Below are positions 22,113 to 24,262 of a DNA stretch of 24,689 nucleotides, piece after piece. Made by a program: the position numbers and the translations under genes. Numbering within the stretch: position 1 is the stretch's first letter; each line of letters begins with the position of its first letter. The notes beneath the pieces were generated by a model, which did no database searches, was not told where the DNA came from, and saw only the letters and a program-made list of their open reading frames with translations. Source of the stretch: a virus; UHGV virus genome UHGV-1601690; one strand, written 5' to 3'.

Positions 22113-22181
22113 AAGTTCCCTCCTACGTTGTCAGGAGGTAATGGTATGCAAAGTAACTTCTCAACCGGTCATGTTGCTTGA

Positions 22182-22213
22182 CATCCTCCACGTCCTTTAG
22201 AGCGTGGAGGATG
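22182..22213. repeat. Perfect 11-bp-stem hairpin adjacent to the start of the intron-like region
   Basis: CATCCTCCACG - TCCTTTAGAG - CGTGGAGGATG; ends at 22213, and GTGCG begins at 22215. Confidence 0.75.
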
Positions 22214-22214
22214 T

Positions 22215-23060
22215 GTGCGCCCAGCATGGGCGCGATCTTGGAGGTGAAAGCCCTCCCGCGAGCTGACCACAGCGAGCGAAATGAAGTGCAACTGCGTGAG
22301 GGCGACCGGGCGTGGGGAGGAAGCACGGAATGAACCCGTGAGCCGATGAACGAGAATCGGATATGAGGCGCGATGGAGCAAGGCGAGCAGGCACATCACT
22401 GCGAAGCTTTCGTGGTCAAGTCGAAGTCGCGCAGATCCGACGGTTGTGCGGGGAAGGATCGCGTTCTTACCTGGGGAGTTCTCGCCTCATGCCTGAAAGG
22501 GCAACGTCGTAAGACGGAGCGAGAAGTCAGCAGAGGCCGTTGTAGTCAGGACTCCGACGAAGGGCCGAACGAGAAGGAAAGCCAGAAGATATGACTCTTG
22601 ACAGGACATTGCGTCAGAAGCCGGGGAAGCCCGGTACGGACCCGCATGCCGGGTGGTGTGGCAGGGGCGCAGCCCTTGTGCTCCCCCCTATGCCGATCAA
22701 GCAGAACATTGTGCTGGGCCTCTGACGCAGCTCCTTGATGGTCTTGGCATCGTGCTTAAGTGGATTGGTGTCGTCCCTGATAGGATCATGGAGGCAGAAT
22801 GAAACTCAAAAATCCGGGATAGCACGCAAAACAGGCTGCACAAAAAGCGCAGGTTGCGTAGGAGTGAAATCCCGCTCCCAAAAAATGGTGCAGAAGTTGC
22901 GGCAGTGGTCATCCGACGCACTGGAAAATAACAAACCCGCCGTGACCAGAATCGGAGGCCTGAGGGAGTGACCGAAAAACCGGACAACCCAGGCAGCAAA
23001 TACCCGCTGGATGAGGCATGGTTCCGGCAGATAATACCGAAAACCGCCAGACACACTGGA
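22215..23060 (+). ncRNA. Candidate 5' fragment of a group II intron (domains I-III and start of IV), truncated
   Basis: Starts GTGCGCCCAGCATGGGCGCG (compare the remembered Ll.LtrB 5' end GUGCGCCCAGAUAGGG). About 850 nt that look GC-rich by eye, with stops in all frames and many short helices; ends abruptly where AT-rich DNA begins near 23060. No reverse-transcriptase ORF or domain V present. Confidence 0.4.
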
Positions 23061-23117
23061 TAATCAGTAGAAATAATCCATTAAAGTTATTATAATAATT
23101 GGTCACATTATTATATT

Positions 23118-23681
23118 ATGCTGAACAATAGAAATATGACTATTAATGAACTTAAAGACTGTATTCACTATGAAGTAATTGGTAGCGAGCGTCCTTTCTC
23201 TTGGCGAAAAGCAATTGTTCGCGCAATAAAACATAGAAGAGTTCGTTATTTATTTTGGTGGCGCATATCAAAATATCTTTTTGATAAAGGCGGATACAGG
23301 CGAAAGGTTGCAGGGAAAATAGAACGCTTCATTCTTGACAAATACAATGTAACCGTTCCCTTAACGGTAAATATAGGGAAAGGGTTTGACATATCTTATC
23401 TCAATGGCGTTGTTATCGCTCACAAAGTCACAATCGGTGAAAATTGTTCAATTAAGCCCGGAGTAACTATTGGACTTCGCGGGGAATTTAATGACATGGA
23501 TATTGTTATAGGAGATAATGTGACCATTGGTTGTAATGCCACCATTCTTGGTGGCAAAGTGCGTATAGGAAACAATGTCACAATAGGTGCTCATGCATTG
23601 GTATTGCATGATATTCCTGATGATTCAACATTCATCACTAAATTTCAGTCTGAAGTTATCTGCTCGTCCTCCCGCACATAA
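23118..23681 (+). CDS. Hexapeptide-repeat (left-handed beta-helix) acetyltransferase, probable polysaccharide O-acetyltransferase; AT-rich cargo
   Basis: 187-aa ORF with consecutive hexapeptide repeats ([24 protein letters not shown]...[35 protein letters not shown]). AT-rich by eye, preceded by an AT-rich promoter-like stretch containing TATAAT. Start may be the second ATG at 23136. The 3' end overlaps the tfa 3' end convergently. Confidence 0.8.
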
Positions 23682-24262
23682 CCCTGATTCATCAGCTCTG
23701 GCCATACGATATCCGGAGCTGTACTGGTATCAATTCGACTCACTAATACTCTGTATTTTCTCCAGGAGTCCAGTTGTGAATTTTCCTCGTTTGTTGCTAT
23801 TTCAAGATTAACTGCGTCCTGCAGAATTGCGATGTTATCTGTTGCCTCCTGGATCAACCTTGCCTTTTTCTCTTCCGCTTCCCGTATCCGAAACAGTTTT
23901 TCTGCTTCCTCATCCTTCACCCAGGATACGCCGTCCCACTTCTGATACTCCCCTGCTGGCGACAACCAGGTGACATTCTCTGGTAGCGGTCCGGGTTCAG
24001 AAATAAACAACGCGTCCCCCGATGCCACCTCATAGACCGTTTTACCACGATGGTCTTCAACAATATTCCACGATTCATTTTCACTGTTGAAAACTGCCAC
24101 AAAGCCAGTAGGAATTTCCGGTGGGGCGATATCTGTAGAATTAGCTGGCAGCCCTGTATGAGGTGGAATATATGCGTCATCTTCACCAATAAACTCATTA
24201 GTTCCGGCCAGCAGGTTATAAATTTTTACTGTACGTGATTGTTCACTCATTCTGAATGCCAT
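23645..24262 (-). CDS. Tail fibre assembly chaperone (Tfa / P1 U-like)
   Basis: 205-aa ORF with a Tfa-type C-terminal region (DIVWPEL...). Its ATG overlaps the tail-fibre stop (TAATG). The last few codons run into the AT-rich cassette. Confidence 0.85.

Follow-up and report, generated by a model that had tools for sequence, protein, structure and literature searches.

Class C (group IIC) introns of bacteria are thought to home, by hairpin shape, to terminators or to the attC sites of integrons. The locus described here, positions 22182-23060 of a viral DNA of 24,689 nucleotides (nt) (UHGV virus genome UHGV-1601690; "the window" denotes this whole stretch), very probably holds a variant of that arrangement, a composite of the remnant of an IS200/IS605 end hairpin, a 483-nt class C intron without an open reading frame (ORF) and a scrap of a phage tail tape-measure gene. 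This high degree of confidence applies to the explanation as a whole, in which an internally deleted class C intron resides within an IS609-type right-end remnant at the joint between P1 backbone and cargo. The feature is most likely an ordinary dead retroelement scar that happens to be precisely delimited.

The described class C introns (GsI-IIC, E.r.I1 and O.i.I1) share with it a small ribozyme, insertion just 3′ of a DNA stem-loop, a 4-6-nt intron-binding site 1 (IBS1), a 1-nt IBS3 and, as judged from the full-length relative of the window copy, a protein that comprises reverse transcriptase (RT) and maturase domains only. In contrast to them, the window copy lacks an ORF and parts of domains IV and V, and its stem-loop is a transposon end without a T-run rather than a terminator. 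IIC introns are the class associated with integrons (PMC7923331). The group IIC-attC introns form a class C sublineage that likewise homes to the folded, single-stranded hairpin of another mobile element; here, however, the target is a subterminal hairpin of the IS200/IS605 type, 3 nt from the transposon end, rather than an attC, and integron features are absent.

In IStrons, a group I intron and a TnpB transposon (IS200/IS605 or IS607) are combined in one transcript, with the intron near the right end and guide-RNA region (bioRxiv 10.1101/2023.11.20.567912). The present arrangement resembles IStrons in bringing an intron and a TnpB transposon into one transcript, but differs in both ribozyme class (group II by Rfam) and position (3 nt inside the right end). 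The splice sites of IStrons lie at the IS ends and the whole element splices out, whereas here a group II retroelement appears as a separate parasite nested in the right end or, in one relative (L020), in the left end. Naturally ORF-less group II introns also retain the ribozyme ends without an RT gene, and because such members exist, the missing ORF does not bar the window copy from group II. It is set apart from them by a recent deletion, a damaged domain V, neutral decay and its restriction to a single locus.

Boundaries and class of the intron

An earlier note on this DNA had read the interval as about 850 nt of intron sequence that begins with a GUGCG signature directly after a hairpin. 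The start was placed correctly: GTGCGCCCAGCATGGGCGCG begins at 22215, a single T beyond the stem. The extent comes out differently, because an empty site in three P1-like plasmids, for example pMB17626_2 (L007; also L010), defines both ends exactly. This site reads ...GCTTGACATCCTCCACGtcctttagggCGTGGAGGATGT continuing directly into CAAGCAGAACATTGTG..., in the layout CATCCTCCACG, loop, CGTGGAGGATGT and CAAGCAG, and the window differs from it by 483 nt inserted exactly before CAAGCAG. Comparison with the empty sites of both L007 and L010 reveals no target-site duplication. An insertion of this kind, free of duplication, is what reverse splicing by a group II intron characteristically leaves. The final 360 nt of the interval thus fall outside the intron and belong to a tape-measure pseudogene.

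The same division emerges from BLAST against complete E. coli genomes, in which the 879 nt were split into an intron part and a tape-measure part. A full-length intron in the chromosome of E. coli MFDS1019527 (L002), for which an ltrA gene is annotated, matches 22187-22634 with its 5′ part at 97.8% identity, and this intron occupies the same position, between T and CAA, of an IS609 copy. The 62 nt that remain between the intron part and the tape-measure part can be aligned with the terminal stretch of the L002 intron, which comprises domain V, domain VI and the 3′ end. When a phage collection was searched with the 879-nt interval there was no match; matches were found instead in plasmids and E. 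coli genomes.

Group II identity, for which the earlier note had proposed cmsearch as a check, is borne out by two Rfam models of domains I-IV, RF02001 (22296-22466, 96.9 bits, E 7e-19, gathering threshold 32) and RF01998 (22484-22565, 41.6 bits, gathering threshold 35). Since both scores exceed the curated thresholds, the call is secure and lies far beyond what chance would give; the fold of lowest energy for the entire intron (z = -1.44) is uninformative alone. Domain V had been declared missing. An nhmmer profile of domains V-VI, for which the 3′ ends of 77 relatives but not the window sequence were used, nevertheless matches 22629-22697 (E 2.3e-14), so that by homology both domains are present, and the match stops exactly at the last position of the model, the 3′ splice site at 22697. 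This family-specific profile was used instead of the general domain V/VI model, RF00029, which yields 17.4 bits against a threshold of 40. A candidate relationship to RmInt1, suggested by about 60 matches in Sinorhizobium, was rejected because these matches are confined to the conserved 100 nt of domains V-VI.

No reverse transcriptase ORF was found in the window interval, in agreement with the note, and the protein tests of class were run on the full-length relative L002, in which approximately 376 nt precede the ORF. The encoded protein of 456 amino acids (aa), WP_000186915.1, contains RVT_1 and GIIM only and has no endonuclease (HNH) domain. Against solved structures it scores 433 bits with 6ar1 (the GsI-IIC RT, group IIC) and 313 bits with 7uim (the E. 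rectale maturase, group IIC), compared with 149 bits for 6me0 (group IIB) and 134 bits for LtrA (group IIA). The assignment to class C, which had also been proposed from the hairpin-adjacent position, is based on this RT type, on the location behind a hairpin, on the pairing of exon-binding sites 1 and 3 (EBS1 and EBS3) with the exons, and on the CGC triad of the family.

The hairpin and its recognition by the intron

The hairpin upstream of the intron consists of a perfect 11-bp stem (CATCCTCCACG at 22182-22192 and CGTGGAGGATG at 22203-22213) and a 10-nt loop, and is followed by a single T. Its affinity is revealed by the sequences that flank related introns. The 39 nt located 5′ of the L002 intron recur at 100% identity in thousands of E. 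coli chromosomes and form the terminus of the K-12 insQ/tnpB element beside ydcO, an element that we take to be IS609 of the IS200/IS605 family; this end reads ...GGGATCCACGTCCTTCAGGGCGTGGAGGATGTCAA, with tatcgg beyond it. A tnpB element on 60-kb plasmids (L009), whose gene is TnpB by Pfam, terminates in TCCACGTCCTTTAGGGCGTGGAGGATGTCAA and is identical over 31 nt to the site in the P1 plasmids, as is the end of the tnpB element in L005. The K-12 and plasmid elements share the terminal hairpin and GTCAA, and the loop in the window is homologous to the loop of IS609-type right-end hairpins.

The same hairpin block adjoins the intron in four unrelated contexts, and homology breaks off directly after CAA (of GTCAA) in five. 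The loss of homology at this point in the five contexts places the intron between the T and the CAA of the terminal TCAA, and such a break would be the behavior expected of a transposon boundary. An alignment of 11 such ends, which come from several phyla, shows conserved flanks (GGAATC and GAGGATGT) around a covarying stem, with 93.9% of cells paired, double changes in four of nine pairs, and a covariation score reached by none of 500 shuffles. The block therefore displays the subterminal hairpin, terminal motif, diverging flanks and tnpB/tnpA context of an IS200/IS605 right end. Only the terminal 31-35 nt of the transposon are retained in the window, and because tnpA, tnpB and the left end are absent, the element is a transposon remnant and not a transposon.

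The 11-bp hairpin of the earlier note is a perfect stem, as described, but it forms part of a larger structure. When the intron is removed (22175-22214 joined to 22698-22703; L007 2962-3007), an 18-bp perfect palindrome results, TGCTTGACATCCTCCACG...CGTGGAGGATGTCAAGCA. Authentic IS609-type ends instead possess an imperfect hairpin, ATCCACG opposite CGTGGAGGAT, with a 3-nt bulge. The right arm of the palindrome corresponds to the transposon end plus 3 nt of the tape-measure flank, and the left arm is an inverted copy thereof, the outer TGCTT of which coincides with the P1 sequence GTTGCTTAAGAGG. We infer that the perfect left arm probably arose as a fold-back copy and that the junction with P1 formed by microhomology. 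A similar perfected hairpin resides immediately after the ccdB stop codon in the F-type plasmid p503440_52 (L004 2990-3211) and about 50 similar records; there, a 91%-identical intron comes next, of which no more than the first 211 nt are present.

Exon recognition can be traced through the family. Across about 60 relatives, the terminal loop of domain I that corresponds to EBS1 changes together with the final 4-6 bases of the 5′ exon (TGAAAA with TTTTCA, TCCAA with TTGGA and GGGT with ACCC, among others), and this covariation identifies the EBS1-IBS1 pairing. The EBS3 candidate, which resides in a GUA(A/G)AU coordination loop, can pair, in 47 of 59 family members, with the base that opens the 3′ exon (A-T in 21, G-C in 15 and G-T in 11); the column is plausible in the covariation scan, its 80% pairing not being decisive alone. 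Both this pairing and the insertion just 3′ of a stem-loop match the recognition geometry of the E. rectale ribonucleoprotein-DNA structure (PMC10190682). Beside the EBS3 candidate, the coordination loop of the window copy is altered, with C22432 standing where T is invariant in 58 relatives. Because the sister copies L092 and L093 retain this T, the change to C is a late mutation in the window lineage.

Covariance searches with RAGATH-18 gave sub-threshold matches (28-30 bits; threshold 44.9) at L002 3915-3958 and at L009 2915-2958 and 4078-4121, all of which fall in the last ~100 nt of tnpB genes. These weak matches are consistent with a guide-RNA scaffold located just upstream of the hairpin that precedes the intron.

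The internal deletion and competing readings

The hexamer GCCCGG is found at both 4443 and 5793 of L002, and a single copy in the window indicates that 1350 nt have been removed. The deletion took the RT/maturase gene beyond codon 14, the conserved CGAA linker, and half of domain IV on its 3′ side. What had appeared to be a 5′ fragment that stops abruptly is thus an intron with both of its ends, from which only the interior of domain IV was lost. Remnants of the RT-maturase gene, for which the earlier note had suggested a search at 22700-23060, are represented instead by the stump within domain IV (Table 1), and the 44-aa ORF that contains it (22591-22725) has no Pfam match.

In 77 aligned full-length relatives, including L002 from E. 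coli, domain V reads CCGCC(C/U/G)GGUGCGG... and later CC(G/A/C)GGUGG, with a CGC triad and one compensatory pair (C-G, U-A or G-C). As a result of the deletion, domain V of the window copy begins with AAGCC rather than CCGCC, which places an A opposite a G where CC is invariant in all 77, and a G-to-A change at 22636 strikes another invariant base. Domain V is consequently short of two basal pairs and one upper pair, and its predicted stability declines from -20.4 to -13.9 kcal/mol. Moreover, two helices, the domain IVa hairpin (CCGGGGAAGCCCGG) and, through its 5′ strand, domain V, now have to draw on the one GCCCGG that is left, and the predicted minimum-energy fold of the whole RNA forms the former and not the latter. 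In domain VI, the bulged A22690 sits 7 nt before the 3′ splice site; in the family alignment the distal stems of this domain covary and the end, CCCCUAUGCCGAU, is conserved.

Three other copies, one chromosomal (L092) and two on plasmids (L093 and L095), are 2-3% diverged and carry the same junction and the same G-to-A change, which indicates that the deletion arose once and that the copies decayed afterwards; L092 and L093 have further small deletions in domain I. The intron has diverged by 2.1-2.3% and the adjacent pseudogene by 2.0-2.3%, on the basis of only about 10 and 7 substitutions, respectively, and an intron that diverges at the rate of a neighboring pseudogene is most likely an inert relic. 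The deleted form is present in 31 of 5426 E. coli genomes and in 35 PLSDB plasmids, always at this locus, whereas intact full-length copies occur in only 3 of the 5426 genomes, and the copy on an IncHI plasmid (L094) has a broken ORF. Most likely, then, the intron is an immobile, splicing-defective relic carried passively on about 30-35 P1-like plasmids of E. coli, of which p204A1-114K is an example.

A course of events can be proposed on this basis. A full-length intron would have reverse-spliced into single-stranded DNA that carried the folded transposon-end hairpin, guided by the shape of the stem, by EBS1-IBS1 pairing (ACAUC with GAUGU) and by EBS3-IBS3 pairing (G with C), and would then have been copied by its own endonuclease-less RT. 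A subsequent deletion may have taken the RT/maturase gene together with the 3′ half of domain IV, leaving six bases to be shared between the domain IVa hairpin and domain V. The resulting relic, immobile and probably unable to splice, would have been passed on with the plasmid, and the tape-measure pseudogene fragment would represent the sequence that flanked the transposon end.

Other readings of the locus must be weighed against this one. That the interval is a 5′ group II fragment of about 850 nt, truncated before the RT ORF and domain V and ending at an AT-rich junction, is very improbable: the GTGCG start, the domain I-IV matches in Rfam, the lack of an RT ORF and the low RF00029 score would all suit such a fragment, but the empty-site alignment refutes it by setting the insertion at 483 nt, the family profile recovers domains V and VI, and 22701-23060 is tape-measure sequence that is also found in intron-less plasmids. 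Equally at issue is whether the hairpin could be an ordinary Rho-independent phage terminator that resembles a transposon end by accident. Class C introns usually follow terminators, as do most of the relatives fetched, and a GC-rich stem of at least 11 bp is in keeping with that function. This explanation is nonetheless extremely improbable, given that 31 nt are identical to tnpB element ends with homology stopping exactly at TCAA, that the same block accompanies the intron in four unrelated contexts, and that all 13 of the closest relatives, described below, lie at IS200/IS605-type hairpins, seven of them within ~120 nt of tnpB or tnpA. The hairpin was rejected as a P1 terminator in particular because neither P1 nor P7 has it at this position and no T-run follows the stem.

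ORF-less group II introns that are mobilized in trans are known elsewhere, and the window copy could in principle be a functional mini-intron of this kind, able to splice by itself or with maturase provided in trans by a full-length copy, and perhaps mobile. Both splice sites, EBS1, EBS3, the branch-point A and most of domain V are present, and full-length relatives exist in E. coli. We consider this improbable in view of the changes at two invariant basal bases and one invariant upper-helix base of domain V, the competition of two helices for GCCCGG and a minimum-energy fold without domain V, the loss of the 3′ half of domain IV, a divergence equal to that of the neighboring pseudogene, the additional small domain I deletions in sister copies, the confinement of the deleted form to one locus, and the scarcity of intact copies, the plasmid-borne one having a broken ORF. 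Several points nevertheless weigh against the preferred reading of an inert, deleted intron in a transposon-end remnant. The left arm of the hairpin is foreign to a normal IS609 end and is attributed to a putative fold-back event, and the recurrence of a perfected arm on the F-type plasmids hints at something more systematic. The divergence comparison depends on few substitutions. Damage has spared domains I and VI, EBS1, EBS3 and the greater part of domain V, so that splicing may persist at a residual level or with help from a maturase. Finally, the deletion could have taken place either in situ or before insertion, in which case an ORF-less copy could have been mobilized in trans.

Table 1. 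Features of the locus, in order of position in the window
Feature	Position	Strand	Basis
Left arm of the split 18-bp palindrome, TGCTTGACATCCTCCACG	22175..22192	+	Extent of the palindrome at the empty site and, minus the intron, in the window
Hairpin loop, TCCTTTAGAG	22193..22202	+	Alignment with IS609-type right ends (L005, L009, L002, L094)
Hairpin right arm, CGTGGAGGATGT: 3′ arm of the IS609-type right-end hairpin plus the T of TCAA	22203..22214	+	
IBS1, GATGT, bases of the 5′ exon	22210-22214	+	EBS1 covariation across ~60 relatives
ORF-less class C (group IIC) intron, 483 nt, GTGCG to GCCGAT	22215..22697	+	Empty and filled sites, Rfam, identity to L002
EBS1, ACATC, in the domain I terminal loop	22393..22397	+	Complementary to GATGT; falls in the RF02001 terminal loop
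EBS3 candidate: G within the coordination loop, GUA(A/G)AU	22434	+	Pairs with C22698 (IBS3)
Domain IV remnant: start codon and first ~14 codons of the deleted RT/maturase gene, including the CCGGGGAAGCCCGG hairpin	22591..22634	+	L002 4405-4448
Damaged domain V, AAGCCCGGUACGG...	22627..22656	+	Family alignment
Deletion junction, GCCCGG, one remaining copy of a 6-nt direct repeat	22629..22634	+	Repeats in L002 at 4443 and 5793
Domain VI and 3′ end, with bulged branch-point A at 22690	22660..22697	+	Family alignment, nhmmer profile
CAA, last three bases of the transposon's TCAA and start of the 3′ exon	22698..22700	+	Copies diverge right after CAA
Piece of a decayed P2-like tail tape-measure gene	22701..23060	+	Residues ~713-840 of 1336, with stops and frameshifts
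AT-rich spacer before the serine acetyltransferase gene	23061..23117	+	GC 24% over 23048-23117

Relatives at transposon ends and the phage-plasmid context

Eighty relatives with 60-86% protein identity were fetched and their flanks inspected. About 50 of them reside directly after a GC-rich hairpin and T-run, the classic class C position behind terminators, whereas the 13 closest to the E. coli intron are all located at IS200/IS605-type hairpins. Seven of the 13, including the E. coli copy, lie within ~120 nt of tnpB or tnpA. In L013, L015, L019 and L025, the upstream gene that ends within this distance encodes TnpB domains, and in L021 and L022 it encodes an IS200-type Y1 transposase. In L012, L014, L018, L023 and L024, the hairpin sequences are the same as at the tnpB- or tnpA-linked loci. 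A tblastn search with InsQ found no tnpB beside L012, L014, L018 or L024, and the upstream ORFs of L012 and L014 are negative in Pfam; these four are assigned to the group by hairpin sequence only. L020 is positioned within a left-end-type hairpin, with tnpB downstream.

Within this group EBS1 follows differing exon ends (GATGT, GGTTA and GTGTT), and the right-end members with GATGT carry CAA as their 3′ exon. In a neighbor-joining tree of 63 intron proteins, the 13 introns at IS ends form a single group among terminator-targeting introns, with a bootstrap value of 100/100. The intron has the same orientation as tnpB, from which it follows that it would be co-transcribed with the guide-RNA region of the transposon. 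A tentative proposal, which we would rate as quite possible and yet short of probable, is that the relic derives from a monophyletic class C lineage, spread over several phyla, that switched its homing from terminators to IS200/IS605 subterminal hairpins and inserts, on the sense strand, 3 nt short of the right-end boundary.

In IS200/IS605 transposons, TnpA recognizes the end hairpin and cleaves at the terminal motif, and the scaffold and guide of the TnpB guide RNA meet at the right end. Conceivably, an intron at this position would part the hairpin from the cleavage motif and the scaffold from the guide. If the proposed lineage is real, its members would be parasites of transposons that could block excision, travel along with the element, or make guide-RNA maturation dependent on splicing. 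Transposon ends would constitute a third class of class C targets besides terminators and integron attC, and the arrangement would be a natural instance of a retroelement lodged in that end of TnpB transposons which encodes the guide RNA. Both elements rely on single-stranded lagging-strand DNA, and conflict or cooperation between a ribozyme retroelement and an RNA-guided transposon would be open to test. A homing preference for IS200/IS605 ends seems to be undescribed; no description of group II introns in IS605, IS609, IS200 or TnpB contexts was found in a literature search of incomplete coverage, which leaves novelty unproven. The closest parallels are the attC-targeting class C introns and the group I IStrons.

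Other arrangements of the same components were observed. About 1400 E. coli genomes contain, between ygiV and parC (L006 2470-2731), an IS609-type left-end start, ATCCGGTGCGCCGTAAGCC, joined to the last 228 nt of the intron; the intron portion is 92-93% identical and ends in GCCGAT followed by CAA, in the manner of an internally deleted IS609::intron fossil. On an ETEC plasmid (L008 2480-2762), and also at L012 2088-2123, the 5′ flank resembles a hybrid hairpin, the left half of which is of the left-end type and the right half of the right-end type, as though the interior of the transposon had been lost between two similar end hairpins. Tandem introns are present at L018 3957 and L088 1007, where a second copy begins directly after the ...CCGAT 3′ end of the first. 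In L088, EBS1 (AUCG) fits the last bases of the preceding intron, the domain VI of which apparently serves as the target hairpin.

Downstream of the intron, 22702-23050 is ~75% identical at the nucleotide level to annotated phage tail tape-measure genes (L003). A tblastn search with a tape-measure protein aligns to 22701-23060 on the + strand in two frames, with stop codons (E 1.6e-17), from which it follows that this stretch is a pseudogene fragment and not intron. The 119-aa ORF on the minus strand, 22697-23056, is antisense to this fragment and has no Pfam match.

Upstream, homology to P1 and P7 covers lydB, lydA and the LPdar promoter and stops at 22179, which corresponds to the lydC stop codon of P1, so that the interval does mark the left boundary of the cargo, as had been suggested. 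Missing relative to P1 (22113-23117 of the window versus P1 31184-36480) are lydC, cin, cixL/cixR and the invertible C segment, and their absence implies a lineage whose tail-fiber module is fixed rather than invertible. From left to right, the sequence in their place consists of the transposon-end remnant, then the intron and the tape-measure scrap, and finally genes for a serine acetyltransferase, tail-fiber assembly and a tail fiber; from 23048 on, the acetyltransferase and tail-fiber module is 95% identical to phage vB_EcoM-613R2. The intron, IS end and tape-measure scrap are scars left when a P1-like phage-plasmid exchanged its lydC-cin-invertible region for a fixed module.

The LPdar late promoter is kept at 22141-22159 on the minus strand, ~20 nt from the palindrome. 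The hexapeptide-repeat serine acetyltransferase gene (23118-23681, +) and the tail-fiber assembly gene (23645-24262, -) converge with a 37-nt 3′ overlap, and in the intron-less sister plasmids L007 and L010 an extra macro-domain gene resides between the assembly and fiber genes.

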